Source: an uncultured virus (IMG/VR IMGVR_UViG_3300005440_000007) (taxonomy: Duplodnaviria > Heunggongvirae > Uroviricota > Caudoviricetes). From it: a stretch of 32,355 bases of DNA. A program made the translations under genes and the position numbers. The DNA lies in the IMG/VR virus record IMGVR_UViG_3300005440_000007; one strand, given 5' to 3'. Numbering within the stretch: position 1 is the stretch's first letter; the number at the start of each line of letters is the position of its first letter. Under the pieces are notes generated by a model, which did not search any database, was not told where the DNA came from, and worked only from the letters and a program-made list of their open reading frames with translations. Positions 3,570-32,355 of the stretch are shown here, one piece after another.

Positions 3570-3582
3570 GTCTGCTTTCCTC

Positions 3583-3610: not shown

Positions 3611-3617
3611 CAATGAC

Positions 3618-3968
3618 ATGCCAAGGATCAAGCGCCCGGAAATCGGATCTTTTATGGGCGTGATCCCTCCCGGCGTCAAGTCGTTTGCGGCCGACCTCCT
3701 GGATTACTCCTACCGAAAGAAGCGACTGCATGCTGCTCATCTGGTGGTCACGCTGTGTCGCTTCGGCCGGTGGCTATCGTGGGCGTTTTTCCCATCCTTC
3801 CGATTCTTCCCAGGCCTGACCGATTCGGTCGACGGGGCAATGTCCTGGGAGATGAAGGCAAAAATTTCCCTTCGGCCGGACCCCAGGATTCCGTTCGTGC
3901 TGGCGGCCACCGGAGCGATGGGGGCGATTATCGCCAGCCGCAGTTTCAGGGTGAAGAAGGGGGCGTGA
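3618..3968 (+). CDS. hypothetical protein
   Basis: follows promoter; stop overlaps next ATG. Confidence 0.5.
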   Translation: MPRIKRPEIGSFMGVIPPGVKSFAADLLDYSYRKKRLHAAHLVVTLCRFGRWLSWAFFPSFRFFPGLTDSVDGAMSWEMKAKISLRPDPRIPFVLAATGAMGAIIASRSFRVKKGA

Positions 3969-5157: not shown

Positions 5158-5307
5158 GTGGTTGTCTGCGGGAAATGCCACGGCGAGAAAACGCGCATCG
5201 TCAAGCCAGGCGGCGGATACCGCTATGTCTGCTGGTGTGAGGAGTGGAAGGCGATCCTGAAGCTCCTGGATGTTGCAAGAACGAAAGAAAGGAAGAGGGG
5301 ACGTTGA
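5158..5307 (+). CDS. 49-aa zinc-ribbon-like protein (not in ORF track)
   Basis: GGAGG SD, GTG start, MVVCGKCHGEKTRIVKPGGGYRYVCWCEEW...; TGA overlaps ATPase ATG. Confidence 0.55.
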   Translation: MVVCGKCHGEKTRIVKPGGGYRYVCWCEEWKAILKLLDVARTKERKRGR

Positions 5308-19087: not shown

Positions 19088-20458
19088 GTGAAGCTGTACA
19101 CCTACACCACAGAGAGAAGCCTGGCGCGCATGGCGCTCAAAGGCATGCCCAGATTCTTCCCCATGTGGGGCTCGGTCGCTCCAGCCTCGGAAATGGCCGA
19201 GATGGACAAAACACCGAAGGACATCCCGGTGGTTCTTGAGATCGACATAGACGGCCTTGAAAGCATTCTCGCCGTCAGCCCCGAGCGCGTCGAGGACGTC
19301 GCGTCAATGGCCCAGGACGATGTCGAGAACGATCCGGATCTTCCGGAGGGCCAGAAGACCGAGGCGGCAGCGGAAAAAGCCTATTCGGACGTTTACGACG
19401 CCGCCGAGAACCTTTCCAGTGTCGAGGATATGATCGAAAAGTTCGACGTGGTGGAGAATACTGAGGAGATCGACCCCTCCCGGATAAAAGTTCTCGGAAT
19501 TCCCGACATCCAATACCCGGACGACGTCGAGGAAGAGCCGAAAGTTTCTTTCGAAGAGTCTCCCAGGCCCCTCAAGGCCTACAAGCAGCCGCTCGTGACG
19601 CGGCTTCTTCGGTCCATCTTCCTCCCGCGGCACAAGCTTTACGGAGCCCATAAGCGCCGACGTCCCATGATGGGCTTGATTTCGAGATTCATCCCAAGGG
19701 CCCAGGAAGAGGAAGTTTTCGAGGAGCCCCCAGCCGATGTCGTGGATGGGATTCCTCTCGTCTGGGCTTCGGGCAAGACCTTCAGGCGCGGCATGCGCGG
19801 AGCATTCGGCCCCGAGGACGGCGACGCGATCGCGCAGATGGTCGCCCTCCGCGTTGGCCGGGAGCCGGGGAAATACCTGGGAAGCGGGGCGCGCGGCGCC
19901 GCCTACTCCCTCGAAAAGAACCGAGCTCTCAAGGTGACGATGGACGGGAATGAGATTTTCGCCGCGGCGAATCTCATTGGGATCCGACATCCGAATCTCG
20001 CGACCGTGTATGACGTCTTCATCGTGACGGATGGGAAGGCAGGTGCCGGGATCATCGTCCGGGATGCAATCGACACGACGCTCGATAAGTTCGATCCAAA
20101 AGCGGCGGACGCCCTTGACAAGGTCATGGACGACGCCTTTCTTTCGGCGAGCGAGAAAATCGAGCGGGACGCCTCGAGCATAGCCGACATCGACCCGGAT
20201 ATCCTTGCCCAAGAGCTTGAGATGGCGATCGACGTCCTTCGGGAGATCGGATGCGATCTCAAGACCGACGCAGTTCTCGATCTTGCGGACGCCTTCCGAG
20301 AACTCCGTCATCTTGGGATCGTCGGGATCGACTTTGATTCCGGAAACATCGGGATCGTTCGGAAGCCGAAGCCGAGGGCTGTAATTTTCGACTACGGCAT
20401 GACAAAGTCACCAGCCGTCCAGATCGAAGTTCTCAGCCTCGAGCAAATGCAGCGGTGA
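19088..20458 (+). CDS. protein with C-terminal protein-kinase-like domain
   Basis: YLGSGARGAAY Gly loop, ALKVT, HPNLATVYDV, DFDSGNIG catalytic-loop-like, VIFDYG. Confidence 0.75.
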   Translation: MKLYTYTTERSLARMALKGMPRFFPMWGSVAPASEMAEMDKTPKDIPVVLEIDIDGLESILAVSPERVEDVASMAQDDVENDPDLPEGQKTEAAAEKAYSDVYDAAENLSSVEDMIEKFDVVENTEEIDPSRIKVLGIPDIQYPDDVEEEPKVSFEESPRPLKAYKQPLVTRLLRSIFLPRHKLYGAHKRRRPMMGLISRFIPRAQEEEVFEEPPADVVDGIPLVWASGKTFRRGMRGAFGPEDGDAIAQMVALRVGREPGKYLGSGARGAAYSLEKNRALKVTMDGNEIFAAANLIGIRHPNLATVYDVFIVTDGKAGAGIIVRDAIDTTLDKFDPKAADALDKVMDDAFLSASEKIERDASSIADIDPDILAQELEMAIDVLREIGCDLKTDAVLDLADAFRELRHLGIVGIDFDSGNIGIVRKPKPRAVIFDYGMTKSPAVQIEVLSLEQMQR

Positions 20459-21958: not shown

Positions 21959-22963
21959 ATGGCTCTACCGACAGAGATCCGAGAGGACACGTCCGAGCTC
22001 CTTCCCTTCGATCGCTATGATCACGTCATCGTCTCTTTCTCCGGGGGAAAGGATTCCTTGGCCTGCGTCCTCTATGCCCTCGAGCTGGGGATCCCGAAGG
22101 AAAAGATAGAGCTCTGGCATCAGGCCGTTGACGGGAAACCCGGCGTCGATCCTCGCTTCTTCGACTGGCCATGCACGGAAAGCTACTGCAGAGATGTCGC
22201 CCGAGTTCTTGGTCTTCCGATCAAGTTCCAGTGGAGAGACGGCGGATTTGAGCGGGAGATCAACAAGCAGGATGCGCCGACGGCGAAGATCGGATTCGAG
22301 CTTCCAGACGGCTCGATCGGCCAGGCCGGCGGGACGGGGGAGCCCAATACGCGCCTCATGTTCCCGGCCGCGGTGGCCGACCTTCGGACCAGGTGGTGCT
22401 CGGCGATCCTCAAGATCGACGTGGCGACCTCGGCCATCAACAACGATCCGAGATTCAAGACCGGAAAAATTCTCGAAATCACTGGAGAGAGGCGTCAGGA
22501 ATCGAACAATCGTGCAAGGTACGCTGAAGTCGAGAAGCACAAGTCGACTACTCAGTCCAGGCGCGTCGATCAGTGGCGCGCGATCATCGACTGGCCTGAA
22601 GAACGCGTCTGGGAAATCATCCAACGCTGGGGGATCCGCGCGCACCCTGCCTATCACCTTGGCTGGGGACGGGTTTCCTGCATGTTCTGCATCTTCGGGA
22701 ATCCCGACCAGTGGGCGAGCGCAAATGCGGTCAACCCAAGGATGTTCTGGCGGATCCTGAACTACGAACGGCAGTTCGGTCGAACGATCCAGCAGGGCGG
22801 CGACATCGAGCGCCTTGCATCGAAGGGGAAGAGCTATGTCCCGGACGATCCGGAGATGATTCGAATCGCGATGAGCGACGAGGTCCCCCACGGGTACGCC
22901 CAGGCCGGCGCCGCCTGGACGATGCCGTTCGGCGCGTTCAAGAGAAGCGGCGGGCCGCTCTGA
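21959..22963 (+). CDS. phosphoadenosine phosphosulfate reductase family (PP-loop) protein, phage type
   Basis: VSFSGGKDS PP-loop, RWCSAILKI, GERRQES..RA, HPAY.LG.GRVSCMFCIF. Confidence 0.85.
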   Translation: MALPTEIREDTSELLPFDRYDHVIVSFSGGKDSLACVLYALELGIPKEKIELWHQAVDGKPGVDPRFFDWPCTESYCRDVARVLGLPIKFQWRDGGFEREINKQDAPTAKIGFELPDGSIGQAGGTGEPNTRLMFPAAVADLRTRWCSAILKIDVATSAINNDPRFKTGKILEITGERRQESNNRARYAEVEKHKSTTQSRRVDQWRAIIDWPEERVWEIIQRWGIRAHPAYHLGWGRVSCMFCIFGNPDQWASANAVNPRMFWRILNYERQFGRTIQQGGDIERLASKGKSYVPDDPEMIRIAMSDEVPHGYAQAGAAWTMPFGAFKRSGGPL

Positions 22964-23032
22964 CCGTGAATCCTTTGGATGTTTCAGCGGCTCCGTGGTA
23001 GAGTGAAAGTCGTAGAGGTTCGGAGGCGGAGA

Positions 23033-23230
23033 ATGACCACCCCAGGACGCAATCCGGCGACCAAATCCATGGGACAGGTCCCCCTCAATCTGGGCCCGTC
23101 GTCCTGGGGCGGCGGGATGGGTCCAGTGGCGTCAGGACCGCCCAAGTGCCCGCCGGGAATGACTGCAGGCCCTCGCGGGCTTTGTCGGCCCACGACGACG
23201 ACGCTCGGCAAAGGTCGTCTTTCTCGGTAG
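23033..23230 (+). CDS. small Gly/Pro-rich protein
   Basis: GGAGG SD; GRNPATKSMGQVPLNLGPSSWG, CPPG...C. Confidence 0.6.
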   Translation: MTTPGRNPATKSMGQVPLNLGPSSWGGGMGPVASGPPKCPPGMTAGPRGLCRPTTTTLGKGRLSR

Positions 23231-23234
23231 GACG

Positions 23235-24056
23235 ATGCGCCCCTTCCTTGGTCGGGTTCCCCTAAGGGCTTCCGGATCTCGATCTCTTGGCCAGGTCGAA
23301 TTCACGGATCCGTGGGGCGGTTTTCATCGGGTTACCATAGAGCCCGCCCCCGTCCCGGAAGAGGTACCTCCCTTCAACGCCCCCTTTTCCGAGGAGTCGC
23401 GCTTGAGGGATCAGCGCGAAGAGTCCTATCGTCGAAAAATCGACGCGAAGAGGCGGGAGTGTGATTTCCTCGACAAGAATTCAGAGGACTACAGGGAGCA
23501 CTACGAAGGCCTGGAAGATCCGAGCGACGAGGACTACCAGGCTTACTCCCATTCGGTTGACGCCTACAACGAATGTCTCGACAAAATCGACGCGCTCATA
23601 GATGAGATGAACACTGCACCGGTGGATTTTGGCGTGACTCCTCAGGGCACCGGATATCAGTGGCCGCAGGAAGTTCCGGAGCCCACGGGCAGGCCTTTCG
23701 ATCCAGGAGAACAGCCCTACGTTCATCAGCCAGAAGATTATCCGCCCGTGCCATCCGTCGACTGGGAGTGGCCTGAAGAAGTTCCACAGCCGCCAGAAGT
23801 CGTTCCTGAACCCGAGCCGCCGGAGATCGTAGAGCAGCCCCCGACGACGGTTGCAAGCGTCGACTGGAGAACGAGCGGCTGCCCCGCAGGGACCCAGAGA
23901 CTGGTTCGTGGCGGGATGTGTGTCTCTTCGGGTCTCGTTTCGACGGCCTTCTCAATGCCGCAGACGACGGTCCCCCTTTCTACTCAAGCGATGACGACGC
24001 CTTCGTCGGCGTACCTCGGTCGCGTGCGTCTCGCGCAGCGTCCTGGCGCCTTCTAG
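23235..24056 (+). CDS. acidic Pro-rich protein with basic LG-motif termini
   Basis: MRPFLGRVPL..SRSLGQ, W(P/E)xEVP repeats, CPAG...C, AYLGRVRLAQ. Confidence 0.75.
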   Translation: MRPFLGRVPLRASGSRSLGQVEFTDPWGGFHRVTIEPAPVPEEVPPFNAPFSEESRLRDQREESYRRKIDAKRRECDFLDKNSEDYREHYEGLEDPSDEDYQAYSHSVDAYNECLDKIDALIDEMNTAPVDFGVTPQGTGYQWPQEVPEPTGRPFDPGEQPYVHQPEDYPPVPSVDWEWPEEVPQPPEVVPEPEPPEIVEQPPTTVASVDWRTSGCPAGTQRLVRGGMCVSSGLVSTAFSMPQTTVPLSTQAMTTPSSAYLGRVRLAQRPGAF

Positions 24057-24075
24057 AATCTCAATTTTTTTCCGC

Positions 24076-24104
24076 TTGACACCGAACCTTTCGGCGGCTA
24101 CGTT
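24076..24104 (+). promoter_or_regulatory. sigma70 promoter of the tRNA array leader
   Basis: TTGACA-17-TACGTT with an upstream T tract. Confidence 0.75.
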
Positions 24105-24145
24105 GTTCATGTAACAAGACCGCGAAACTAGGAGACGAACCTTCC

Positions 24146-24310
24146 GTGATGTCAAGACCCTGCGTCCGAGATCAAAGGCCAACGACGGGAGAGATCCTCC
24201 ATCGGCAGGCCTGGTCTCTGTTCGTGGGTTCGTATTCCCCGGCGACGAGCAACAAGCCCGCCGGGAATCGAACCATCGAACAGACGGGCGCGGGGGCGAT
24301 GGTCGAATGA
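24146..24310 (+). CDS. putative attenuator leader peptide sampling all 20 amino acids (not in ORF track)
   Basis: AGGAGA SD 24130-24135; GTG24146/ATG24149 to TGA24310; MSRPCVRDQRPTTGEILHRQAWSLFVGSYSPATSNKPAGNRTIEQTGAGAMVE. Confidence 0.7.
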   Translation: MMSRPCVRDQRPTTGEILHRQAWSLFVGSYSPATSNKPAGNRTIEQTGAGAMVE

Positions 24311-24347
24311 AGTAAAGCCCGGAGAAAAAAGACAACCCCCGCGCCCG
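24285..24347 (+). promoter_or_regulatory. antiterminator pairing
   Basis: CGGGCGCGGGGG (24285-24296) is the exact reverse complement of terminator 5' arm CCCCCGCGCCCG (24336-24347). Confidence 0.75.
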
Positions 24348-24368
24348 AAAGGACGCGGGGGTTTTTTT
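24334..24368 (+). terminator. intrinsic terminator (attenuator) upstream of the tRNA array
   Basis: AACCCCCGCG-CCCGAAAGGA-CGCGGGGGTT stem ending in a 7-T run (24362-24368). Confidence 0.85.
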
Positions 24369-24629
24369 GTTGTACCCACCGACCGGTGAAGGTCGGTGGG
24401 CGGATGCAAGGGACTCAGGACGCCATCGGCTTCGGCCGGGCCCCTGAGCCAGGAAGCCGCGGCGCGTTGGCGCGCGCCGCACTTGAAAATCGGGCTGGAA
24501 CGACAAAGATCGGAAGGGGAGGCCCATCCGGGAAGGGTGGGCCTCCCCGACCTCAATGCCAGGCCGCCATACGCTCAGGAATCGAGTATACGCGAGGGGG
24601 ACGAAATCTTCAAGCGCATGGCGCGCCTT

Positions 24630-24703
24630 CCGCCTGTAGCTCAACAGCAGAGCGTCTGGTTTCCACCCAGATGATGCCGGTGCGACTCCGGTCAGGCGGT
24701 CCA
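24630..24703 (+). tRNA. tRNA-Gly(TCC)
   Basis: cloverleaf, CCA end, T-loop TGCGACT. Confidence 0.9.
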
Positions 24704-24706
24704 TCT

Positions 24707-24781
24707 GCGGGCGTAGCGTAGGAGCAACGCGTCTCCTTCCCAAGGAGAAGATCGCGGGTGCAAGTCCCGCCGCCCGCTCCA
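24707..24781 (+). tRNA. tRNA-Gly(CCC)
   Basis: cloverleaf, CCA, T-loop TGCAAGT. Confidence 0.9.
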
Positions 24782-24782
24782 C

Positions 24783-24856
24783 ATGCCGGTGGTGTAGCAG
24801 CAGCATCGCTGTTTCCAAGTCAGCGGGTAGAGGTGCGACTCCTCTCCGGCATGCCA
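24783..24856 (+). tRNA. tRNA-Trp(CCA)
   Basis: cloverleaf, loop TTCCAAG, G73, CCA. Confidence 0.85.
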
Positions 24857-24867
24857 AAATTGAAAAC

Positions 24868-24943
24868 GCCTCTGTAGGGGAGTGGAGTCCCCGCCTCCCT
24901 GTCACGGAGGAGACCGTGGGTTCGAATCCCATCAGGGGCGCCA
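24868..24943 (+). tRNA. tRNA-Asp(GTC)
   Basis: canonical cloverleaf, G73, CCA. Confidence 0.95.
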
Positions 24944-24981
24944 AGCTTCGGGCGTGGTCGCTTGTGCGTGTCGCCCTTTAT

Positions 24982-25055
24982 TCCCACGTCGTCTAAAGGT
25001 AGGACTGCGGTCTCTGAATCCGCCAATCGTGGTTCGAGTCCACGCGTGGGAACCA
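24982..25055 (+). tRNA. tRNA-Gln(CTG)
   Basis: canonical cloverleaf, U1-A72, CCA. Confidence 0.93.
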
Positions 25056-25059
25056 AGCT

Positions 25060-25383
25060 TTAGAGGCCGAAGCGATCCTTGATTTCCCTCTCGAGGCGAC
25101 GATACGGGGTCGTTCCGTCGATCTGGTAGAACTTCTTCCCGTCCTTGAAAAAGACAAGGGCGGGGATCGACGCGATCTCGTATCTCTCGGTCGCTTTTGG
25201 CGCCTCGTCGATATCGGCGCCGACGATCAGGACTTGACCCTTGAGCTCCTGGGCGAGTCGCTCGATCACGGGCTTGGCGGCCTTGCAGCCCGGGCACCAG
25301 GTGGCCCAGAACTCGATGATCGCGAACGGAGCTTTCAGGGCTTCTTCGAAGTTCGCGTCGGTGACCTGCAGAAGTTCGTTCAT
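25060..25383 (-). CDS. trxA: thioredoxin
   Basis: VTDANFE, EFWATWCPGCK, YEIASIPALVFFKDGK; antisense inside the array. Confidence 0.92.
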   Translation of the reverse strand: MNELLQVTDANFEEALKAPFAIIEFWATWCPGCKAAKPVIERLAQELKGQVLIVGADIDEAPKATERYEIASIPALVFFKDGKKFYQIDGTTPYRRLEREIKDRFGL

Positions 25384-25473
25384 AAGTTCCCCCTTGCCGG
25401 GGAATTCTAGCCTATTTTTCATTCCCTGTCACATCCCTATTCGGAGGCGCGCGATACCTTCAGGAGGTACCGC

Positions 25474-25665
25474 ATGACGAATCGGGAGAAACTCATCCGA
25501 GGGATCACGGAGTACGGACGAACGATCCAGGTGGACGGATGGCAGGCGGGGGAAGCCGTCATCCGGAAATACGAATCCAGGATCCCGGACTTCAGGCGTT
25601 GGGCCTATGCCCTCGGGATCCTGCTCAGAGCGGAAGAATTACTCGCCGGTCTAGCTCAGCAGTAG
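25474..25665 (+). CDS. hypothetical protein; last codons overlap tRNA-Phe
   Basis: AGGAGG SD before ATG. Confidence 0.6.
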   Translation: MTNREKLIRGITEYGRTIQVDGWQAGEAVIRKYESRIPDFRRWAYALGILLRAEELLAGLAQQ

Positions 25666-25719
25666 AGCGCCCGTCTGAAAAGCGGGAGGCGTCCGGGGCA
25701 GCACCGGAGGCCGGCACCA
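25645..25719 (+). tRNA. tRNA-Phe(GAA)
   Basis: cloverleaf, CCA, T-loop GGCAGCA. Confidence 0.87.
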
Positions 25720-25793
25720 GGGTCCATCGTCTAGCAGGAGGACGCGAGCGTGGCACGCTCGAGGCGGGAGTGCGATTCTCCCTGGATCCACCA
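25720..25793 (+). tRNA. tRNA-Ala(GGC)
   Basis: cloverleaf with G3:U70, CCA. Confidence 0.9.
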
Positions 25794-25798
25794 AAGCT

Positions 25799-25876
25799 TG
25801 CAGAGGAGAGGCATCCGGTGACCTCGCTTGGCTCATAACCAAGAGCTTGCGGGTTCGAATCCCGCCTCTGCTACCA
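25799..25876 (+). tRNA. tRNA-Met(CAT), initiator-like
   Basis: 1:72 mismatch (U/U), CTCATAA loop, TTCGAAT, CCA. Confidence 0.87.
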
Positions 25877-25906
25877 ATCTTCGGGGCCAAAGGGTTATAA
25901 TCCTGC

Positions 25907-26488
25907 GTGCCCAAGTACACGGCCAACTGGTTCCCGGCGGACGTTTTCGTGAAGTTCTGCCCAGGCCTAAAGGGAAAACAGAATCTCAGGTTCCTCGAGA
26001 TCGGCGTCTTCGAAGGTCAGGGAACGAGGTTCTTTTTCGAGAAGCTTCTGGGGCCGACGGGGACCTTGGTCGGGATCGATCCATTCATCGAGTACTCCAA
26101 GTCGACGGTAGCGAAGATCCCTGGATTCGACCATCTCATGAATGGATCGGTAGAGGAGCGGTTCCGGTCCAACACGGCAGAATTCGCTGCAAGGATCACG
26201 ATCCACAAAGGCTTGAGCCAGAACGTCCTTCCCGGCCTTCCAAGCCAGAGCTTCGACCTTTCCTTCGTCGATGGGGATCACAGTCGGGACGCGGTCGCCT
26301 TCGACGCGCTCCACTCCATGAGGCTCGTCAAAAAGGGCGGCTACATCGTCTTCGACGACTACGGCTGGGGATACAAAGATCGTCCGGAGACGTGCCCTAA
26401 GCCGGCGATCGACAAGTTCCTCATGCAGTACTCCAAGCAGCTCAACGTCCTCTTCAAGCAGTGGTGCGTCGTAGTCCAGAAAAAGTGA
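25907..26488 (+). CDS. class I SAM-dependent methyltransferase (Methyltransf_24-like)
   Basis: FLEIGVFEG, GIDPF, FDLSFVDGDH, LVKKGGYIVFDDY. Confidence 0.88.
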   Translation: MPKYTANWFPADVFVKFCPGLKGKQNLRFLEIGVFEGQGTRFFFEKLLGPTGTLVGIDPFIEYSKSTVAKIPGFDHLMNGSVEERFRSNTAEFAARITIHKGLSQNVLPGLPSQSFDLSFVDGDHSRDAVAFDALHSMRLVKKGGYIVFDDYGWGYKDRPETCPKPAIDKFLMQYSKQLNVLFKQWCVVVQKK

Positions 26489-26498
26489 GATCATTCCA

Positions 26499-26573
26499 GG
26501 GCCCATAGCTCAACCAGAAGAGCAGCCGGTTCGCAATCGGCAGACGGCGGGGCAGCACCGCCTGGGTCCACCA
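26499..26573 (+). tRNA. tRNA-Ala(CGC)
   Basis: cloverleaf, G3:U70, T-loop GGCAGCA, CCA. Confidence 0.88.
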
Positions 26574-26575
26574 AC

Positions 26576-26651
26576 GGGTCCGTAGCTCAATCAGGAGAGC
26601 GCCTGCTTTGCAAGCAGGAGGCAGCGGGAGCAAAGCCCGCCGGATCCACCA
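26576..26651 (+). tRNA. tRNA-Ala(TGC)
   Basis: cloverleaf, G3:U70, T-loop AGCAAAG, CCA. Confidence 0.88.
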
Positions 26652-26659
26652 ATCTTCCA

Positions 26660-26752
26660 GGGCGCTGGTCCGCTCGGCGGTCTGTAAAACCGTTGTCCAA
26701 AAATAAGAGCGGCGGTCAAGGACGAGAGGTTCAACTCCTCCAGCTCCCACCA
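26660..26752 (+). tRNA. tRNA-Tyr(GTA), atypical (no D arm, enlarged variable region)
   Basis: GCGGT-CTGTAAA-ACCGT anticodon arm, GAGG-TTCAACT-CCTC T arm, A73-CCA. Confidence 0.7.
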
Positions 26753-26753
26753 T

Positions 26754-26832
26754 TGCCCGGCACTCTGTACTGGTATCGGAGCTCCGCCTTTGAAGCGGGT
26801 GGGTGAAGGTTCGATTCCTTCCCGGGCAACCA
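26754..26832 (+). tRNA. tRNA-Gln(TTG)
   Basis: cloverleaf, U1-A72, CCA. Confidence 0.88.
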
Positions 26833-26841
26833 GAAAAATTT

Positions 26842-26915
26842 CGGGGTGTAGCACAACGGTAGTGCGCCTCTTTGCCAAGGAGGAGACGCCGGTTCGACAC
26901 CGGTCACCCCGTCCA
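26842..26915 (+). tRNA. tRNA-Gly(GCC)
   Basis: cloverleaf, U73, CCA. Confidence 0.92.
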
Positions 26916-26939
26916 ATATTTGGGCTATACTTCTGTTGG

Positions 26940-27179
26940 ATGAAGATGTTCCTCGCCGCCGTCTTGGCCCTTTCAGGATGTGCGGCTCCGGCGGGGAACA
27001 CGATCGACGCCACGATCCGAAACGACACTCCTATCCCATTCGTGGTGAAGGTCTCGACTCCCTGGGGACAGACGAGCGTCGTCATCGCTCCCGGCACAAC
27101 CTGGTCGGGCCAGGTGGATCGGCGTATGATCCCATCTCGGGTCTCGCTCGTCGTTGAACTTCCTTCCGCGCAGAAGTAG
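26940..27179 (+). CDS. small lipoprotein
   Basis: MKMFLAAVLALSG-C lipobox; TATACT 8 nt upstream. Confidence 0.75.
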   Translation: MKMFLAAVLALSGCAAPAGNTIDATIRNDTPIPFVVKVSTPWGQTSVVIAPGTTWSGQVDRRMIPSRVSLVVELPSAQK

Positions 27180-27188
27180 CCCTCATTC

Positions 27189-27263
27189 CGGCGTGTAGCT
27201 CAAAAGTAAGAGCAGTCGGCCGATAACCGACAGACAGTGGAGCGTTACCACTCACGCCGACCA
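27189..27263 (+). tRNA. tRNA-Ile(GAT)
   Basis: cloverleaf, C33, T-loop AGCGTTA, CCA. Confidence 0.85.
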
Positions 27264-27269
27264 ATATTC

Positions 27270-27343
27270 GGGGCCAAAGTGTTGCGGCGGCACGGTCGGC
27301 TGTGACCCGGCCAGGGTGGGTTCGACTCCCACTGGTCCCTCCA
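27270..27343 (+). tRNA. tRNA-His(GTG)
   Basis: cloverleaf, CCA; lacks G-1:C73. Confidence 0.87.
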
Positions 27344-27364
27344 AGATTCGATGTACAATCTGGT

Positions 27365-27574
27365 ATGCCTCAGATCGAGCAGTCCTGGAGAAACGAAAGC
27401 CGGGCCTGGAGGTGGCTTTCCAGGATCCTGTGCTTCTTCGGACTTCATCACTGGGTCTGGAGCACCACGCTCAAGGCAGCAATCGCCTGCGCGGTGTGCC
27501 CGAAGAAGACGAAGCATTGGCAGGAGTATCGCCGCAGGTCGGCGGAGGGGATGAGAAGAAGCTTTGATCCATGA
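27365..27574 (+). CDS. small Cys/His protein
   Basis: LCFFGLHHW...CAVC; TACAAT 5 nt upstream. Confidence 0.55.
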   Translation: MPQIEQSWRNESRAWRWLSRILCFFGLHHWVWSTTLKAAIACAVCPKKTKHWQEYRRRSAEGMRRSFDP

Positions 27575-27648
27575 CGGGCTCAGGGGTAGACAGCGACCCG
27601 CCTGCTTGGGGTGCAGGAGTAAGCGCGGTGCAAGTCCGCGGAGCCCGA
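27575..27648 (+). tRNA. tRNA-Pro(GGG), CCA not encoded
   Basis: cloverleaf, C1-G72, A73. Confidence 0.85.
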
Positions 27649-27657
27649 TAAATTTGA

Positions 27658-27958
27658 GAAGCGTTCGGTCTGTTGGTGCAAGTCGAAGCGATCACGGCGC
27701 GAAACGACCCACGTAAGTCTCCATGTCCTCAAGCCGCCTCGGAGGACGAAGGAGTGGCAGGGCCTCCAGGTCCGCTATTCGACCACATGCCTTTTGGAGA
27801 TGATCATGGCCGGGCCGGGGAAGCGAAGAGCTTCCAAGATTTGTGTCAGTCCTGCCGCGAGAGCGAGAGACGCCATAAAGGGAGCGCGGGCTCTGAAGTA
27901 CCGGCTAAAGCGTCCAGCAGGCGAGTGTGGGGGCTAAACCAAGGTCAGCGAACGCTTC
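27658..27958 (+). ncRNA. raiA-motif-like structured ncRNA
   Basis: terminal stem GAAGCGTTCG/CGAACGCTTC; blocks AAGTCGA..AAACGACCCACGTAAG, AGTCCTGCCGC..GCGAGAG, CCAGCAGGCGAGTGTGGGG..AGGTCA match my recollection of the raiA motif in order (not checked against a model). Confidence 0.8.
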
Positions 27959-27962
27959 ACTT

Positions 27963-28036
27963 GGGCGCGTAGGATAACAGAAGACCGCCTGCGTGACATG
28001 CAGGAGGAGCTGGTGCGACTCCAGCCGTGCCCACCA
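27963..28036 (+). tRNA. tRNA-Val(GAC)
   Basis: cloverleaf with weak D stem, CCA. Confidence 0.85.
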
Positions 28037-28054
28037 ATTTTGTAAGATGATTCC

Positions 28055-28252
28055 ATGAGCCGAAAGGAAGAAATCCTCAGGAGAGCCGAAGAGCTCCGGC
28101 GCCAGGAGAAGACGTCGAGGAAACCTCCCGACAGCCCATACGATGGAAGAGGGATGGTGTCGCGAATGCCGCTCGGCTGCTGGATCTGGATCCTGGGGCT
28201 TGCAGCGCTCGTTCTTTACGCCTTCAGTCGGTTCGTCGTCGGTGTACACTGA
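28055..28252 (+). CDS. small single-TM protein
   Basis: charged N-terminus, C-terminal hydrophobic helix; TAAGAT 6 nt upstream. Confidence 0.6.
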   Translation: MSRKEEILRRAEELRRQEKTSRKPPDSPYDGRGMVSRMPLGCWIWILGLAALVLYAFSRFVVGVH

Positions 28253-28364
28253 AATCGACCGGATCACCTGGACCCCTAACTCTGGTGGCGGGGTTCGGGT
28301 CGGCAAGGATCGAGGGTGTGCGCCTTCGCGAGGGGCTGACCCGGACCCCGCTCCCGATTTTCCC

Positions 28365-28440
28365 GCCGGCGTAGTTTAGCAGCTCTGAATGCGGCATTGG
28401 TAATGCCGAGGTGCGGGGGCAGCACCCGCCGCCGGCTCCA
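28365..28440 (+). tRNA. tRNA-Thr(GGT)
   Basis: cloverleaf, T-loop GGCAGCA, CCA. Confidence 0.87.
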
Positions 28441-28506
28441 AAAATAAAAAAGCCCAGGCTACGCACCTGGGCCTCGGGCGGGTCTAGTGATCGGATTGTA
28501 GCACAT

Positions 28507-28581
28507 GCTGGCGTAGCTCAACAGCAGAGCCCCCGCCTTGTAAGCGGACAGATGCCGGTGCAAGACCGGTCGCCAGCTCCA
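28507..28581 (+). tRNA. tRNA-Thr(TGT)
   Basis: cloverleaf, CCA. Confidence 0.88.
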
Positions 28582-28657
28582 AAATAATAAAGCCCGGAGA
28601 AACAGGACTTCTGCCCTCCGGGCCATGTGCGGTATGTGTCAGAAAGATTCTACACGA

Positions 28658-28732
28658 GCCAGTCTCGTCCAACAAGAAGGACGTCGGTTTCATAAGCCGA
28701 AGATAGCGGGGCAGATCCGCTGGCTGGCACCA
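28658..28732 (+). tRNA. tRNA-Met(CAT), elongator-like
   Basis: cloverleaf, loop TTCATAA, T-loop GGCAGAT, CCA. Confidence 0.82.
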
Positions 28733-28738
28733 AAGCTT

Positions 28739-28830
28739 GGAGGGTTTGGTACATCGGCAGGTCCGCTCCGCTCGAACCGGAGTAGGTCTCGAAAGGGGCC
28801 TTGGGCGTTCAACTCGCCCACCCTCCTCCA
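28739..28830 (+). tRNA. tRNA-Ser(CGA)
   Basis: long variable arm, GGAG acceptor, CCA. Confidence 0.87.
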
Positions 28831-28908
28831 AAAAAATTCGAGCCCAGGCGAAGTGCCTGGGCTCGGGAGAGGGAAACGCCTTTCGAAGGCTGAGAAATTC
28901 TACCACAT

Positions 28909-28998
28909 GGAGACGAAGGCAGTCAGCGTGCCGCACCGGCTTGAACCCGGTTGCCCGGCTCGTCCGGGTCGCGCGTGCAACTCGCGCCGTCTCCTCCA
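28909..28998 (+). tRNA. tRNA-Ser(TGA)
   Basis: long variable arm, CCA. Confidence 0.87.
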
Positions 28999-29006
28999 AG
29001 TTTCAT

Positions 29007-29097
29007 GGAGGCGTTGGGCATAGGCAAGCCCACTTCGTTGGAAGCGAAGGGCCGACGATTCGTTGGCTTGCAGGTTCGACTCCTGCCGTCTCCGCCA
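29007..29097 (+). tRNA. tRNA-Ser(GGA)
   Basis: long variable arm, G73, CCA. Confidence 0.92.
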
Positions 29098-29098
29098 T

Positions 29099-29185
29099 GG
29101 AAGAGTACGGCTAATTGGTAAGCCACCGTGTTGCTAACGCGGCGCCCTCACAGGCTTGTGGGTTCGAGTCCCACCTCTTCCGCCA
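29099..29185 (+). tRNA. tRNA-Ser(GCT)
   Basis: long variable arm, G73, CCA. Confidence 0.93.
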
Positions 29186-29262
29186 ATCTTGAAAGTCACC
29201 AGTCGTTCGACCAGGCCAGGATAGCGTGCCCAGCACGACGGCTCTGGATCGGCGACGATCGG

Positions 29263-29337
29263 TGCGGGACAGAAGGCCGGGCCTCGACGGGTTTCATAAG
29301 CCTGTTACTGCGTGTTCAACTCACGGTCCCGCTACCA
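29263..29337 (+). tRNA. atypical tRNA with CAT anticodon (Met/fMet-like)
   Basis: T.GCGGGAC/GTCCCGC.T acceptor, tiny D loop, loop TTCATAA, 4-bp T stem with TTCAACT, CCA. Confidence 0.7.
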
Positions 29338-29338
29338 T

Positions 29339-29413
29339 GCACCGTTGGCGAAATGGGAACGCGGCCGCCTGCAAAGCGGTCATGACCGGGCTCGATCCCC
29401 GGACGGTGCTCCA
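29339..29413 (+). tRNA. tRNA-Cys(GCA)
   Basis: cloverleaf, U73, CCA. Confidence 0.88.
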
Positions 29414-29443
29414 AGCTTCTTCCATGATCGGATTGGGAGCGTT

Positions 29444-29737
29444 ATGATGACGCTCATGACAGCCAAGTTCGCGGCCAATCCATTCCAGGGCGTTTCGTTC
29501 GGCCTGGACCACTCCTTCATGTACCGCCAGGAGGATCCGGAGCACTGGATCGTCTACCAGAGGAAAGACGGCCTCATCGTCGCGTCCTTCGACGGAACCG
29601 AAGCATTTCCGGGAACATCCCAGAATCTCGATCAGTCGCAGAGAAAATTCTGGGCCCAGGAGCTCGCGTACCGGGAATGCATTCGGAGGAATTCCCCTGC
29701 GGCCCCGGATCTCGCGGCGATCGACACCACGCCATAG
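29444..29737 (+). CDS. hypothetical protein
   Basis: GGGAG SD; fills the gap between tRNAs. Confidence 0.6.
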   Translation: MMTLMTAKFAANPFQGVSFGLDHSFMYRQEDPEHWIVYQRKDGLIVASFDGTEAFPGTSQNLDQSQRKFWAQELAYRECIRRNSPAAPDLAAIDTTP

Positions 29738-29753
29738 CAGAAACTTCATCCAG

Positions 29754-29829
29754 GCCGGTGTAGCTCATTCAGCAGAGCGCCGAGTTCGTAACTCGGAGGC
29801 GGCGAGGGCAGAGCTCGCCACCGGCTCCA
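29754..29829 (+). tRNA. tRNA-Thr(CGT)
   Basis: cloverleaf, T-loop GGCAGAG, CCA. Confidence 0.87.
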
Positions 29830-29830
29830 T

Positions 29831-29905
29831 TCCGGGATCAGCTCAACGGTAAGCTGCTCGGTTGTTACCCGAGTCATGGGGGTTCGAATCCCTCTCCCGG
29901 AGCCA
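29831..29905 (+). tRNA. tRNA-Asn(GTT)
   Basis: cloverleaf, U1-A72, G73, CCA. Confidence 0.92.
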
Positions 29906-29910
29906 ATCTT

Positions 29911-29985
29911 GCCCCTGTCGCGTAACAGACAGCGCGCCGAGCTTCTACCTCGGAAGTGCGGGTGCAATTCCTGCCGGGGGTACCA
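29911..29985 (+). tRNA. tRNA-Arg(TCT)
   Basis: cloverleaf, CCA. Confidence 0.88.
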
Positions 29986-29986
29986 T

Positions 29987-30060
29987 GGCCTCATCGACTA
30001 TGAGTAGGTCGGCACCCTCTCAAGGTGCAGGAGCGAGTGCGAATCTCGCTGAGGCTACCA
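29987..30060 (+). tRNA. tRNA-Glu(CTC)
   Basis: cloverleaf, CCA. Confidence 0.9.
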
Positions 30061-30065
30061 ATCTT

Positions 30066-30140
30066 GGGCCGCTCGTCTACGAGTTAGGATCTCCGGTTTT
30101 CACCCGGAGGGACAGGGTGCGAGTCCCTGGCGGCCTGCCA
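30066..30140 (+). tRNA. tRNA-Glu(TTC)
   Basis: cloverleaf, CCA. Confidence 0.9.
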
Positions 30141-30143
30141 ATT

Positions 30144-30644
30144 TTAGCTGAAGATCGCGTAGAGCGCGGCCGCGATCCCGACGGCGCCAAGAGCGTATGG
30201 CGCAGCTTCTTCGATCGTCGTCTTCTTCTCCTCGCTTGCCTGGAACTCAAAGGCAGCTTCCGGAGGAGTGGTCGGCGGATAGTAGTAGATCGGCGGGTAG
30301 TACGGGAAGTAGTAGATCGGCGGCCGCGGGCGAGGCGGGCACGAGGCGGGTTCCTTCTTGTAGGTGATCGTCCCGTCCGGCTGCTTGCATTCGAAGAGCT
30401 GGAGGCAGGATCCGTTCTCCCTGAAGGGAACTCCGAGGCGCTTGCAGTCTGCTGGGGGAGGAGGGGGCGGAGGAAGCGGTTCCGGTTCAGGTTCCAGAGC
30501 GGGCTCCGGCGCGGGCTCGGGTTCCGGCATCGGTGCCGGTTCCGGAGGAAGCACGTCGGGGAGAGGGCCATTCTGGCCCATGCGGGCGCGCGTGAACGGG
30601 GATCCCTGGAACGGGAGCTGTCTCAAGAAGGTCTTCTGGAACAT
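30144..30644 (-). CDS. Pro-rich protein with C-terminal transmembrane anchor
   Basis: AAAGGAG SD; RARMGQNG, PEP repeats, 4-Cys mini domain, PPIYY repeats, terminal helix YALGAVGIAAALYAIFS. Confidence 0.8.
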   Translation of the reverse strand: MFQKTFLRQLPFQGSPFTRARMGQNGPLPDVLPPEPAPMPEPEPAPEPALEPEPEPLPPPPPPPADCKRLGVPFRENGSCLQLFECKQPDGTITYKKEPASCPPRPRPPIYYFPYYPPIYYYPPTTPPEAAFEFQASEEKKTTIEEAAPYALGAVGIAAALYAIFS

Positions 30645-30710
30645 TCCGCTCTCCTTTCGGGCTTCAGGAAGAATTATAGCCACAACCTGGCTTCTAAAAA
30701 ACAGAGATCT

Positions 30711-30784
30711 GCCTCCGTAGATCAACAGCAGATGACCCGGCTTTTACCCGGGGGATGAAGGTGCGAATCCTTCCGGAGGCACCA
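30711..30784 (+). tRNA. tRNA-Lys(TTT)
   Basis: cloverleaf, CCA. Confidence 0.9.
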
Positions 30785-30792
30785 GAAAATTC

Positions 30793-30866
30793 GGGAGCGT
30801 AGTTCAACAGCAGAAGACCCGGCTCTTACCCGGGGGATGAGGGTGCAACTCCCTCCGCTCCCACCA
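30793..30866 (+). tRNA. tRNA-Lys(CTT)
   Basis: cloverleaf, CCA. Confidence 0.9.
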
Positions 30867-30874
30867 AACTTCAA

Positions 30875-30951
30875 GCCGCCGTGGCGCAACCAGCAGACGC
30901 GCTCGTTTCAAAAACGAGATCTTGCGGGTGCGAGTCCCGCCGGCGGCACCA
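30875..30951 (+). tRNA. tRNA-Leu(CAA), short variable loop
   Basis: cloverleaf, A73, CCA. Confidence 0.88.
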
Positions 30952-30955
30952 TCCT

Positions 30956-31031
30956 GGGCCCGTGGCGGAACAGCATACGCGCTCGCCTTAGGAGCGAGAT
31001 TTTGGGGGTGCAAATCCCTCCGGGCCTACCA
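30956..31031 (+). tRNA. tRNA-Leu(TAG), short variable loop
   Basis: cloverleaf, A73, CCA. Confidence 0.88.
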
Positions 31032-31037
31032 AAATTC

Positions 31038-31114
31038 GCGGCTGTGATGCAACTGGCAGACATCTTCGGCTCAGAACCGGAGTCCTGGAGGTTCGAATCC
31101 TCTCGGCCGCACCA
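31038..31114 (+). tRNA. tRNA-Leu(CAG), short variable loop
   Basis: cloverleaf, A73, CCA. Confidence 0.9.
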
Positions 31115-31121
31115 AAGATTT

Positions 31122-31195
31122 GCCCCGCTATTTCAACAGTAGAATGCCTGTCTCACATACAGGTGATGGGGGTGCAACTCCCTCGCGGGGTACCA
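31122..31195 (+). tRNA. tRNA-Val(CAC)
   Basis: cloverleaf, CCA. Confidence 0.88.
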
Positions 31196-31334
31196 AAAAA
31201 TTTACGAGGCCGCGAAGATCTGGCGATCTCCGCGGCCTCAGGCAGGGACCCGTTGCCCCTCTCTCCGGGAACTGGGGAGAATATGTTGTCACCATGGATT
31301 CAGAATCGTGAAAAATGTTACTCGAAAAATATTT

Positions 31335-31412
31335 GCCCGTGTAGACCAACTGGCAGGAGTCACGACGCTGAGAACGTCGGTAGTGGAGGTTCGAATCCTC
31401 TCGCGGGCACCA
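31335..31412 (+). tRNA. tRNA-Leu(GAG), short variable loop
   Basis: cloverleaf, A73, CCA. Confidence 0.9.
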
Positions 31413-31420
31413 AACTTCAT

Positions 31421-31497
31421 CGGGGCGTAGGGTAGCGGCTTAACCCGCCTGTTTCGGATACAGGAAATCGCGTGTTCAAATCACGCCGCCCCGACCA
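31421..31497 (+). tRNA. tRNA-Pro(CGG)
   Basis: cloverleaf, C1-G72, CCA. Confidence 0.93.
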
Positions 31498-31545
31498 TTT
31501 TTTTTGATTCTTGAAAGCCTTCAGATACCGTGATAGGCTTGAGCT

Positions 31546-32127
31546 GTGTTCGAGCCTATCTTTCCGGGGGCCACAATTCCTATCCGTTCAGTAATTCTTG
31601 GCCAATCGGATCCACGCGATCCAGAGTATTGGCGAAAAGCTCTGGAGAGATTTAAGGAAGATAAAAAGGAACTGGAGGAATTCTACGGGCCTAGAAGCCC
31701 GGAGCAAGAAAAGCTGCTTGAGTATTACCGCGATATGATACCCAGGGTAGAATCATTTCTTCAGACCGGATGGTGGCCTCCATTTCCAGGGACACCCGGC
31801 CGTAGCAAGGCTCTTCCTGGCGGTGGAGTTCTGATGCTACCTCCATTTGAGTCGCTCACGGCTCCTGAAACTCCTCCACCTCCCCCTCCACCACTGCCTG
31901 TGCCTAGCGGTGGGATAACCAGGAGAGGAATAATAGATCGGCCGGACGTTGCCACGACTATGTGTCCTCAGGGGCAATTCTGGGACGGCCAGAGATGTCG
32001 TGGAAGCGTTTCGTCATTCGGTGCCTTTGGTGGGCTTGCCCTTCAGCCTGGCGGCGGTGCAACAACGTTCACCATGGGTAGTATTCCGCTTGTCCGCGGC
32101 ATTGGCACCCGTGCGCTTGGCTTGTAG
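31546..32127 (+). CDS. Pro-rich hypothetical protein with LG-motif leader
   Basis: TTGAAA-17-TAGGCT 6 nt before GTG; RSVILGQ, poly-Pro, CPQGQFWDGQRC; architecture like ORF 23235. Confidence 0.7.
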   Translation: MFEPIFPGATIPIRSVILGQSDPRDPEYWRKALERFKEDKKELEEFYGPRSPEQEKLLEYYRDMIPRVESFLQTGWWPPFPGTPGRSKALPGGGVLMLPPFESLTAPETPPPPPPPLPVPSGGITRRGIIDRPDVATTMCPQGQFWDGQRCRGSVSSFGAFGGLALQPGGGATTFTMGSIPLVRGIGTRALGL

Positions 32128-32151
32128 ACGGTAGAAACGTCAAATCTTCTC

Positions 32152-32227
32152 GGGCCGTTAGCTCAACGGCAAAGAGCGAGCGTCTCATAAACGCCTGACG
32201 CGAGATCGACACTCGCACGGCCCACCA
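32152..32227 (+). tRNA. tRNA with CAT anticodon, probably Ile2 (lysidine type)
   Basis: GGGCC acceptor, CTCATAA loop, T-loop ATCGACA, CCA; Ile2 versus Met is inferred. Confidence 0.8.
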
Positions 32228-32235
32228 AACATCAA

Positions 32236-32311
32236 CAGGCTCAAGGGTAGATAGCGACCCGCCTGCCTTGGAAGCAGGAGCAGCGGCGTGCAAGTCGCCG
32301 GAGCCTGACCA
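32236..32311 (+). tRNA. tRNA-Pro(TGG)
   Basis: cloverleaf, C1-G72, CCA. Confidence 0.88.
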
Positions 32312-32312
32312 C

Positions 32313-32355
32313 GCCCCCGTGGGGTAGTAGATGCCCGGCGATCTCCTACATCGCA
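32313..32355 (+). tRNA. tRNA-Arg(CCT), truncated by window end
   Basis: acceptor 5' strand, D arm and GCGAT-CTCCTAC-ATCGC anticodon arm. Confidence 0.75.

Follow-up and report, generated by a model that had tools for sequence, protein, structure and literature searches.

We analyzed a 32,355-nt stretch of DNA assigned to an uncultured virus (IMG/VR record IMGVR_UViG_3300005440_000007; the whole of this stretch is referred to below as the window) and identified in it a ModT-like non-coding RNA (ncRNA) of the raiA family, which is 301 nt in length (27658–27958, + strand) and is embedded in an array of tRNA genes. Among bacterial RNAs that have no known biochemical function, those of the raiA/ModT family are some of the most abundant and widespread. 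Our preferred interpretation, to which we assign a probability of about 0.6, is that the RNA is a functional, divergent ModT homolog that is carried by a large phage-like element of soil bacteria and has been built into the tRNA array of that element. The observations behind this interpretation are the homology of the RNA to raiA, the conservation of its structure under selection, its fixed tRNA-array context and its presence in an RNA library. The family itself is known; what is new is the mobile tRNA-array niche, together with the breaking of linker and spacer features that are constant in all of the bacterial copies examined.

Family Assignment and Anatomy of the RNA

An earlier note on this DNA, made from its letters alone, had recognized the raiA motif and proposed a search with the corresponding Rfam model. 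In that search RF03072 (raiA) aligned over its entire length (model positions 1–209 of 209) to 27659–27957 (+) with 101.4 bits (E 5.8e-24), which upheld the identification at a score only at the family threshold (gathering score 101.3), and raiA was the sole non-tRNA match when the whole window was scanned with Rfam 15. Five distinct relatives of the RNA, described below, each matched the full model with 104.3 (L247), 101.4 (L245), 101.4 (L249), 100.5 (L243) and 98.2 bits (L248), four of the six distinct sequences thus being at or above the cut-off and two slightly under it. This resemblance to raiA is far beyond chance, and the RNA is almost certainly a raiA homolog. It is not an ordinary copy, being instead a divergent offshoot of the family that represents a mobile, tRNA-array-borne raiA subfamily.

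The overall anatomy given in the earlier note (301 nt, a 10-bp closing stem, 9 nt after tRNA-Pro and 4 nt before tRNA-Val) agrees with ARAGORN and with the sequence, in which the closing stem can be read as G27658–G27667 paired with C27949–C27958. The total length is within the bacterial span, the raiA copies that were fetched being 271–311 nt. The features of the RNA are listed below, with helix names after the structural passages of PMC12968392 and PMC10861870, and with i denoting the window coordinate minus 27657; PK stands for pseudoknot.

27658–27677, + strand: 5′ strand of P1a, P1b and P1c with a GU bulge, pairing with 27938–27958 (GGU bulge); 18 pairs, 100% paired, five changed on both sides (P1a, i 1–10/292–301; P1b, i 13–15/289–291; P1c, i 16–20/281–285)
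27682–27708, + strand: P3a (GUCG/CGAC; i 25–28/48–51), AA/GAAA internal loop and P3b (GCG/CGC; i 31–33/41–43), an architecture set out in passages of PMC12968392
27691–27697, + strand: 5′ strand of PK1, which is the 7-nt P3b loop AUCACGG
27709–27712 with 27927–27930, + strand: P4, CCAC with GUGG (i 52–55/270–273), invariant in the clade; named as in passages of PMC12968392
27717–27801, + strand: P5, a 7-bp stem (i 60–66/138–144)
27724–27794: 71-nt P5 insert (i 67–137) with hairpins at 27724–27748 and 27752–27780 and an invariant 14-nt single-stranded tail at 27781–27794
27806–27815, + strand: PK-L, in which AUG (27806–27808) is a PK2 strand and CCGGGC (27810–27815) the 3′ strand of PK1, following the scheme in passages of PMC12968392
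27819–27835, + strand: extra hairpin of 17 nt (i 162–178), with a 6-bp stem and a GAAGA loop, inserted between PK1 and the linker
27836–27850, + strand: altered single-stranded linker AAGAUUUGUGUCAGU, which replaces bacterial UUAGA(C/A)GUAA(GU)
27851–27921, + strand: P6 (CCUGC/GCAGG; i 194–198/260–264), short P7 with a GNRA loop, and P8 (i 213–216/253–256 plus an inner stem), whose loop CAUAA/CUAAA replaces the AGUA/GAA E-loop

The RNA resembles the P2-less, P7–P8 subtype of raiA/ModT exemplified by Ca-raiA of Clostridium acetobutylicum, as portrayed in passages of PMC10861870, PMC11706538 and PMC12968392. The model match is full-length, P1a, P1b and P1c are present with both bulges, P3a and P3b meet at an A-rich bend, P4–P8 are present, the PK1 and PK2 strands occupy the same places, and there is no P2 in the window RNA. 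The P6, P7 and P8 helices are 100% paired. In the structural passages of PMC12968392, PK1 consists of 6 bp between the P3b loop and PK-L, and PK2 of two Watson–Crick and two G–A pairs, with a bulged A that contacts G20. PK1 of the window RNA has four of six Watson–Crick pairs, the other two positions being mismatched (A/G and U/C) in all six sequences. In PK2, G27808–C27934 is kept and a U27807/U27935 mismatch replaces U–A; the sequence contains the A run as well as the G and A residues that would form the non-canonical pairs.

The internal expansion described in the earlier note corresponds to P5, where TCTCCA (27718–27723) pairs with TGGAGA (27795–27800) and encloses 71 nt. The fold of P5 alone has a z of −1.64, which is weak; the evidence for the insert hairpin is its covariation. 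A candidate pairing of the invariant tail of the P5 insert with the new linker was dropped, as it was no better than 20–32% of shuffles.

Relatives of the RNA and Selection on Its Structure

A scan of metagenome collections for the raiA mid-block combined with a long P5 identified 12 loci, one of which (L254) was a chance match to an ordinary bacterial raiA. The clade RNA is carried by 11 soil and rhizosphere metagenome contigs, in six of which it is identical to that of the window and in five of which it is distinct (L249, L243, L247, L245 and L248). One of the contigs (L244; 98,208 bp) is 100% identical to the window over 22682–32355 (9,674 nt). Besides eight possible source runs, nine soil or rhizosphere DNA runs from nine studies contained 91–97% of the words sampled from 27300–28300, and the carrier element is common in soil and rhizosphere.

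The six distinct RNA sequences were aligned (alignment A1) with a homology-based structure of 87 pairs that includes both pseudoknots. Pairing was present in 96.2% of 522 cells. Both partners had changed in six pairs, of which four belong to P1a, one to P1c and one to the first of the two P5-insert hairpins. None of 500 shuffles matched this result, and sliding the partners by 1–3 columns left 0–1 double changes and 37–40% pairing. The remaining changes in stems are wobble intermediates, the sole loss being that of the closing U–G pair of the insert hairpin in two sequences. P1, P3, the insert hairpins and P7 were also recovered by RNAalifold from the six sequences. Support for P3–P6, PK1 and PK2 comes from homology with bacterial raiA because these elements are invariant within the clade.

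Identity of the RNA to that of the window is 97.3% in L243, 96.7% in L247, 93.0% in L245 and 90.4% in L248. The two small open reading frames (ORFs) that flank the RNA are 48–89% identical (blastn identities over query length), and the flanking tRNAs are 78–100% identical where the same tRNA was found. With 90–97% identity for the RNA against 48–89% for the flanking ORFs, the RNA evolves like a tRNA and not like a spacer. It is very probably under selection as an RNA. A 99-codon reading frame over the RNA was rejected as a gene: its TTG start is lost in three of the six variants, and the frame is broken by a 2-nt indel in the P7 loop of L248.

Comparison with Bacterial raiA RNAs

The reference set comprised 113 distinct bacterial raiA RNAs from species genomes, fetched with a pattern that forced 18 columns. 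The raiA mid-block, which is kept in the clade, is therefore invariant in these copies by construction of the search. Out of 79 near-invariant columns (≥95% identical, n = 113) the window RNA has kept 67, or 49 of 61 once the 18 pattern-forced columns are subtracted. Nine of the 12 changed positions are in helices (two in P3b, six in PK1 and one in P1c). The P3b change converts C–G to G–C and is compensated relative to the bacterial consensus, and the one changed position of P1c has a partner that has also changed. In PK1, bacterial GUCGCA/UGCGGC has become UCACGG/CCGGGC through three double-sided Watson–Crick changes and one change from G–U to G–C, with two pairs lost. The closest bacterial raiA is at most 67% identical to the window RNA.

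The suggestion in the earlier note that P5 is longer than is typical was borne out. The bacterial P5 segment is mostly short (17–21 nt in 110 of 119 copies), but a few bacterial copies are expanded too (25, 33, 51, 58 and 103 nt) and the total length of the window RNA is unexceptional; because of those few copies with a long P5, the 71-nt insert is rare but not unique. The 103-nt P5 segment occurs in an Actinomycetota raiA of 310 nt (L259; G099:C14:25934-26243, − strand), and that of L260 is 51 nt.

The truly clade-specific features are two that had gone unmentioned in the earlier note, namely the hairpin at 27819–27835 and the loss of the conserved linker. The spacing from PK1 to P6 is 41 nt in the window, versus 17–18 nt in 121 of 121 bacterial copies (after three regular-expression artefacts had been resolved), and no counterpart of the spacer hairpin was found in any of these 121. 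Directly after PK1, the conserved 10-nt linker UUAGA(C/A)GUAA has been replaced by AAGAUUUGUGUCAGU. The spacer insertion and the altered linker are the real signature of the clade. A P7–P8 domain is found in 68% of the raiA family, and its P8 frequently contains an E-loop; the window RNA is without the AGUA/GAA E-loop. It also differs from bacterial raiA in its branched 71-nt P5 insert and in its score (101 bits versus 112–201 for the bacterial copies scored).

The location of the RNA sets it apart as well. The family typically occupies one chromosomal locus in Bacillota or Actinomycetota. Bacterial raiA is neighbored by comFC in 74% and by raiA/hpf in 66% of copies, according to passages of PMC10861870, whereas the window RNA lies in the tRNA array of a mobile element and not between these genes. 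Conversely, no tRNA was found near raiA at any of 69 bacterial loci (about 1.5-kb flanks). In Actinomycetota, raiA was present in 57 of the 151 genomes sampled, as a single copy in every one and with 111.8–172.5 bits; two of the 151 are unpublished genomes that enter this count alone.

The tRNA Array

The claim in the earlier note that the RNA belongs to a mobile array was supported, as it is inside a mobile-looking array of 40 same-strand tRNA genes (40 distinct calls, all +; 34 by ARAGORN and 33 by Rfam, with 27 shared). The array and the immediate neighbors of the RNA are as follows.

24630–32311, + strand: tRNA gene array with small ORFs interspersed, from ARAGORN and Rfam; it runs past the end of the window
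27365–27574, + strand: small ORF, 69 aa, between tRNA-His and tRNA-Pro
27575–27648, + strand: tRNA-Pro(ggg), the upstream neighbor, called by ARAGORN only
27649–27657, + strand: A/U-rich 9-nt spacer TAAATTTGA, in which the 5′ end of the RNA is presumably formed
27959–27962, + strand: 4-nt spacer before tRNA-Val
27963–28036, + strand: tRNA-Val(gac) with encoded CCA, called by ARAGORN and Rfam
28055–28252, + strand: small ORF, 65 aa, with a hydrophobic C-terminus, after tRNA-Val

All 11 loci of the clade are inside same-strand tRNA arrays, and in four lineages tRNA-Val(gac) is situated 4 nt 3′ of the RNA. In L248 the RNA occupies a different slot: tRNA-Pro(tgg) ends 6 nt before it and tRNA-Arg(cct) begins 8 nt after it. 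In a related array from a wood-decay RNA run tRNA-Pro(ggg) leads straight to another tRNA, without a raiA-like RNA. In L243 tRNA-Pro(ggg) and the RNA are separated by an inserted ORF at 317–886 (+), which encodes a 189-aa endonuclease VII/HNH-like protein (phrog_1035, E 4.7e-14) and has the look of a homing-endonuclease gene that has entered a phage tRNA array. The change of slot, the array without the RNA and the insertion in L243 mark the RNA as a movable module within the array.

CCA is encoded in 32 of the 33 Rfam tRNAs of the array. The tRNA-Pro(ggg) at 27575–27648 was not reported by the Rfam tRNA model even at E ≤ 1, and it is followed by TAA at 27649–27651 where L245 and L247 encode CCA. 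The flanking 69-aa and 65-aa ORFs have 67–100% protein identity in relatives and matched no family at E ≤ 0.001, the best match being one PHROG at E 0.0098.

Two further peculiarities of the array were observed. Several of its tRNAs (e.g., 24630–24781 and 27575–27648) have the T-loops UGCAAGU or UGCGACU, with G at U55, a position that is near-universally U in tRNA T-loops. In addition, an A run and a strong G+C-rich hairpin are present immediately after the CCA of three tRNAs (28438–28475, 28831–28865 and 31196–31240). Two of these hairpins share the core GCCCAGG...CCTGGGC, and they read as intrinsic terminators of the − strand, on which there is no convincing gene end at these places.

Transcription and Processing

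A consensus scan of 23000–32355 detected no terminator-like site on the + strand close to the RNA (the next one downstream is at 30128), and the three promoter-like sites identified were all on the − strand. Co-transcription with the flanking tRNAs appears close to forced because the spacers of 9 and 4 nt leave no room for a promoter or terminator of the RNA's own, which makes its release by tRNA processing, as suggested in the earlier note, a reasonable inference. Judged from the sequence, the RNA is probably co-transcribed with the tRNAs and processed with them.

In textbook tRNA maturation RNase P forms the 5′ ends, and an endonuclease or 3′ maturation acts in the upstream spacer. The RNA would thus be transcribed within a polycistronic tRNA precursor, from which an RNase P cut at the 5′ end of tRNA-Val would yield its 3′ end with a 4-nt trailer. 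Its 5′ end may be set in the A/U-rich spacer by an endonuclease or by 3′ maturation of the upstream tRNA, and the product would be an RNA of about 305–314 nt closed by P1. The 5′ spacers of the clade are A/U-rich within a genome of 60% G+C, being TAAATTTGA in the window and, after CCA, ATTTTTC, GATTTTC and AATTTT in others.

Evidence from RNA libraries consists of two contigs. One from a rhizosphere metatranscriptome (X18; 260 nt) corresponds to 27672–27931 with 0 differences and is wholly inside the RNA, and one from a soil metatranscriptome (X22; 168 nt) corresponds to 28227–28394 with one difference. Parts of 26000–30000 that were uncovered in the RNA runs carry no evidential weight. Wastewater runs labeled 'RNA?' were rejected as evidence of expression, as they are probably DNA.

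The earlier note had also placed the array under a translation-stress attenuator. This proposal found no support, as no T-box, leader or riboswitch family was significant in 24000–32355, the best match being to Thr_leader, on the − strand (E 0.61). The first tRNA is preceded by a promoter-like site (TTGACA-17-TACGTT, 24076–24105), after which comes a leader of about 230 nt and a G+C-rich hairpin resembling a bidirectional terminator (24334–24363; 13-bp stem, A run and T run). This element (24076–24370) matched no Rfam family and may mark where the preceding operon ends, or else encode a small RNA or act as an attenuator. It is situated 3.3 kb upstream of the raiA-family RNA, and nothing links it to translation stress.

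The Carrier Element

Searches of the window with Pfam, PHROG and NCBIfam identified a GP88-family protein (735–1814, −), a HerA/FtsK-like ATPase (5244–7127) that also matches a PHROG annotated as terminase large subunit, and genes for a PolX-like polymerase, ThyX, RmlA and a PAPS-reductase/DndC-like protein, while genes for a methyltransferase and a thioredoxin are inside the tRNA array. Homologs of the GP88-like protein, at about 27% identity, were found in 327 phage records, nearly all of them of actinophages (223 Mycobacterium, 96 Streptomyces, four Fromanvirus, two Caudoviricetes and two Sphingomonas). The carrier is a large phage-like element, probably of Actinomycetota, and a phage seems somewhat likelier than a plasmid.

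A 456-aa protein without a family match (19088–20458, +) has 34 unnamed homologs of 38–100% identity, the top one of which belongs to the window's own cluster. All are from metagenome assemblies, on contigs of up to 170,838 bp, and the protein marks an uncharacterized lineage of large elements. No relatives of it were found in IMG/VR, in which the HerA-like ATPase has one relative, at 40% identity, on an 83.9-kb contig without raiA. The 59 loci with relatives of the PAPS-reductase-like protein had neither tRNA arrays nor raiA blocks. Comparison of the window with cultured phages and plasmids for near and distant DNA similarity returned single tRNA genes only.

raiA and Large RNAs on Other Mobile Elements

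The RNA had no blastn match among 50,697 GenBank phage records, and raiA was absent at E ≤ 1 from three phage records that share proteins with the window (Streptomyces phages Bmoc and Mandalore, and Caudoviricetes sp. MW202482 from a spring metagenome). The mid-block pattern found none of the clade RNA in IMG/VR; it matched three loci there on three contigs, one of which is a true raiA by Rfam (L002, 188.1 bits), at a prophage edge. A strict scan of IMG/VR for the 3′ block returned two loci, and a loose scan 58, for 12 of which the upstream sequence was inspected, making it a weak scan.

Prophages are known to integrate into tRNA and tmRNA genes. In L002 a full raiA at 12–217 is followed by a tyrosine integrase ORF (325–1527, −), and L001 has only the last ~30 nt of raiA (about 3001–3040, the stretch matched by the 3′-block search), the same downstream flank and a homologous integrase ORF (3145–4344, −). 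From these two IMG/VR contigs, both A+T-rich, it appears that the 3′ end of raiA serves some Bacillota prophages as an integration site.

Full-text searches of the literature returned no report of a raiA copy in a tRNA array or carried by a phage or plasmid. Phage genomes were searched with a raiA profile in PMC12286853, in whose main-text passages on this search no phage copy is reported; the word phage occurs once in PMC10861870, in a reference title, and is absent from PMC11706538 and PMC12968392. In passages of PMC10861870, raiA is treated as a single-copy, vertically inherited chromosomal gene, and horizontal transfer is argued against.

The closest parallels in terms of niche are GOLLD (RF01998) and ROOL, which likewise are large structured RNAs by or in phage tRNA islands and are probably co-transcribed with tRNAs (passages of PMC5737381 and PMC12286853). 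The window RNA is unrelated to them in sequence and fold; passages of PMC12286853 describe GOLLD and ROOL as multimeric cages of 500–800+ nt and raiA RNA as a monomer. Neither was found in the window at Rfam gathering scores, nor in 24000–32355 at E ≤ 1. The array itself resembles the tRNA array units of Mycobacterium plasmids and phages, in that these are dense arrays of about 30–40 tRNA genes on mobile elements of Actinomycetota (PMC5966550, PMC12803027). Those units carry GOLLD, going by a reference title cited in PMC12286853, whereas the ncRNA of the window is raiA-like, and the DNA shared with them is limited to single tRNA genes.

Discussion

Several of our results weigh against the window RNA being a functional ModT homolog of a phage-like element. 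Its score is only at the family threshold, with two of the six variants slightly under it, and is lower than that of every one of the 57 sampled Actinomycetota matches. P3, P4, P5, P6, PK1 and PK2 are invariant in the clade and show no internal covariation, RNAalifold gave P4, P5 and P6 other partners (all of them invariant pairs), and the pseudoknots are incomplete, PK1 having four of six pairs and PK2 one of two Watson–Crick pairs. The X18 contig has a low depth (3.4) and possibly reflects DNA carry-over, and the contigs show no RNA ends. Searches with Pfam, PHROG and NCBIfam revealed no capsid, portal or tail gene in the 32-kb window, and RmlA gave no host signal, its closest matches (64%) being genes on Proteobacteria and Acidobacteria replicons.

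What the RNA would do for the element can be considered in terms of the bacterial family. Bacterial raiA RNA is abundant and trans-acting, and its loss impairs sporulation and aggregation in C. acetobutylicum (passages of PMC10861870). Deletion of modT in C. difficile raised 75 of 90 tRNA loci and 5S RNA and delayed entry into stationary phase (passages of PMC11706538), and KhpA–KhpB binds raiA RNA, for which the exposed linker is the proposed site (passages of PMC12968392). A role in translation or tRNA homeostasis, as was also raised in the earlier note, is a hypothesis. As a functional ModT homolog, the window RNA would fold into the raiA core (P1, P3, P4, PK1, PK2 and P6–P8), to which the lineage would have added the branched P5, the extra hairpin and an altered linker at the proposed KhpA–KhpB or partner site of bacteria. 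In an infected cell it would act in trans on the target or targets of host ModT. Possibly, it would mimic or compete with host ModT such that the translation apparatus (tRNA and rRNA pools, growth phase) stays favorable, an end that the tRNA set of the element would also serve. This suggestion of a mimic or antagonist is made because the core and P1 have been kept while exactly the linker region has been rewritten, and it is our best guess and the most economical reading, although we hold it with well under even confidence. Its most specific form is unlikely: that a phage re-engineered ModT into a competitor, in which the catalytic or ligand-binding core and P1 are kept and the linker is swapped for a hairpin and a U-rich strand, and which, being stoichiometric with about 40 phage tRNAs, would block the ModT-dependent down-shift of the tRNA/rRNA pool and growth state.

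An alternative with a similarly small share of our confidence is that the raiA fold is an exapted chassis, whose clade-specific parts bind a protein of the element, tRNAs or ribosomes without involvement of the ModT pathway. Lineages that are otherwise divergent show little or no variation in the clade-specific segments, the bacterial linker and E-loop have been replaced, the insertion between PK1 and P6 occurs in 0 of 121 bacterial copies, and the unrelated GOLLD and ROOL fill the same phage tRNA-island niche (passages of PMC5737381 and PMC12286853), all of which speaks for such a chassis. Against it, 85% of the near-invariant bases are kept, including positions of the core and P1 that go beyond the needs of stability. 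Because these bases are kept and PK1 has been maintained by compensation, the conserved core itself appears to be still in use.

We consider it improbable that the RNA is a cis-acting part of the array, that is, processing punctuation, a stabilizer or an insulator of the tRNA precursor that has no role after cleavage. Its invariable distance of 4–10 nt from tRNAs and the other hairpins that follow tRNA 3′ ends in the array are in keeping with such a role, but 300 nt, two pseudoknots and 67 family-invariant bases exceed what punctuation needs, and the 260-nt X18 contig covers the RNA alone. In addition, the RNA is missing after tRNA-Pro(ggg) in one related array and is placed differently in L248, which means that the neighboring tRNAs are independent of it.

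It is less probable still, and would be quite surprising, that the RNA is a hitch-hiker, a host raiA gene captured by accident that is now decaying. Its threshold score, its two weakened pseudoknots and the lost linker and E-loop could be taken as signs of decay, but the RNA is 90–97% conserved where the flanking ORFs are 48–89% identical, its stem changes preserve pairs (six of them double), and it was kept after relocation within the array (L248). Any capture from a host would also be old, because no bacterial copy is closer than 67%. We can virtually dismiss an ordinary chromosomal raiA of an unsampled bacterium, with the window being chromosome, for which the want of a structural phage gene in the window could be cited, given that there is no comFC or raiA/hpf neighbor, that 40 tRNA genes are packed into 7.7 kb among phage-family genes, that the fixed spacer differs from 121 of 121 bacterial copies and that an endonuclease gene is inserted in the relative L243.

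A functional, divergent ModT homolog in the tRNA array of a large phage-like element has several implications for the raiA family. It means that a raiA RNA can travel on mobile DNA alongside tRNAs. It also provides a link between raiA and tRNAs that comes independently from genomics and fits the raised tRNA levels of the C. difficile modT deletion, as given in passages of PMC11706538. The clade can be viewed as a natural mutagenesis experiment, in which the core, P1 and PK1 have been kept by compensation and the linker and E-loop replaced, and it thereby offers direct tests of the linker versus the core. If the competitor interpretation were true, the native function of raiA/ModT would be the control of tRNA/rRNA homeostasis, and the phage variant would be a natural separation-of-function mutant. 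A copy that has been remodeled yet conserved on a mobile element indicates that raiA is useful enough for a cellular parasite to carry.

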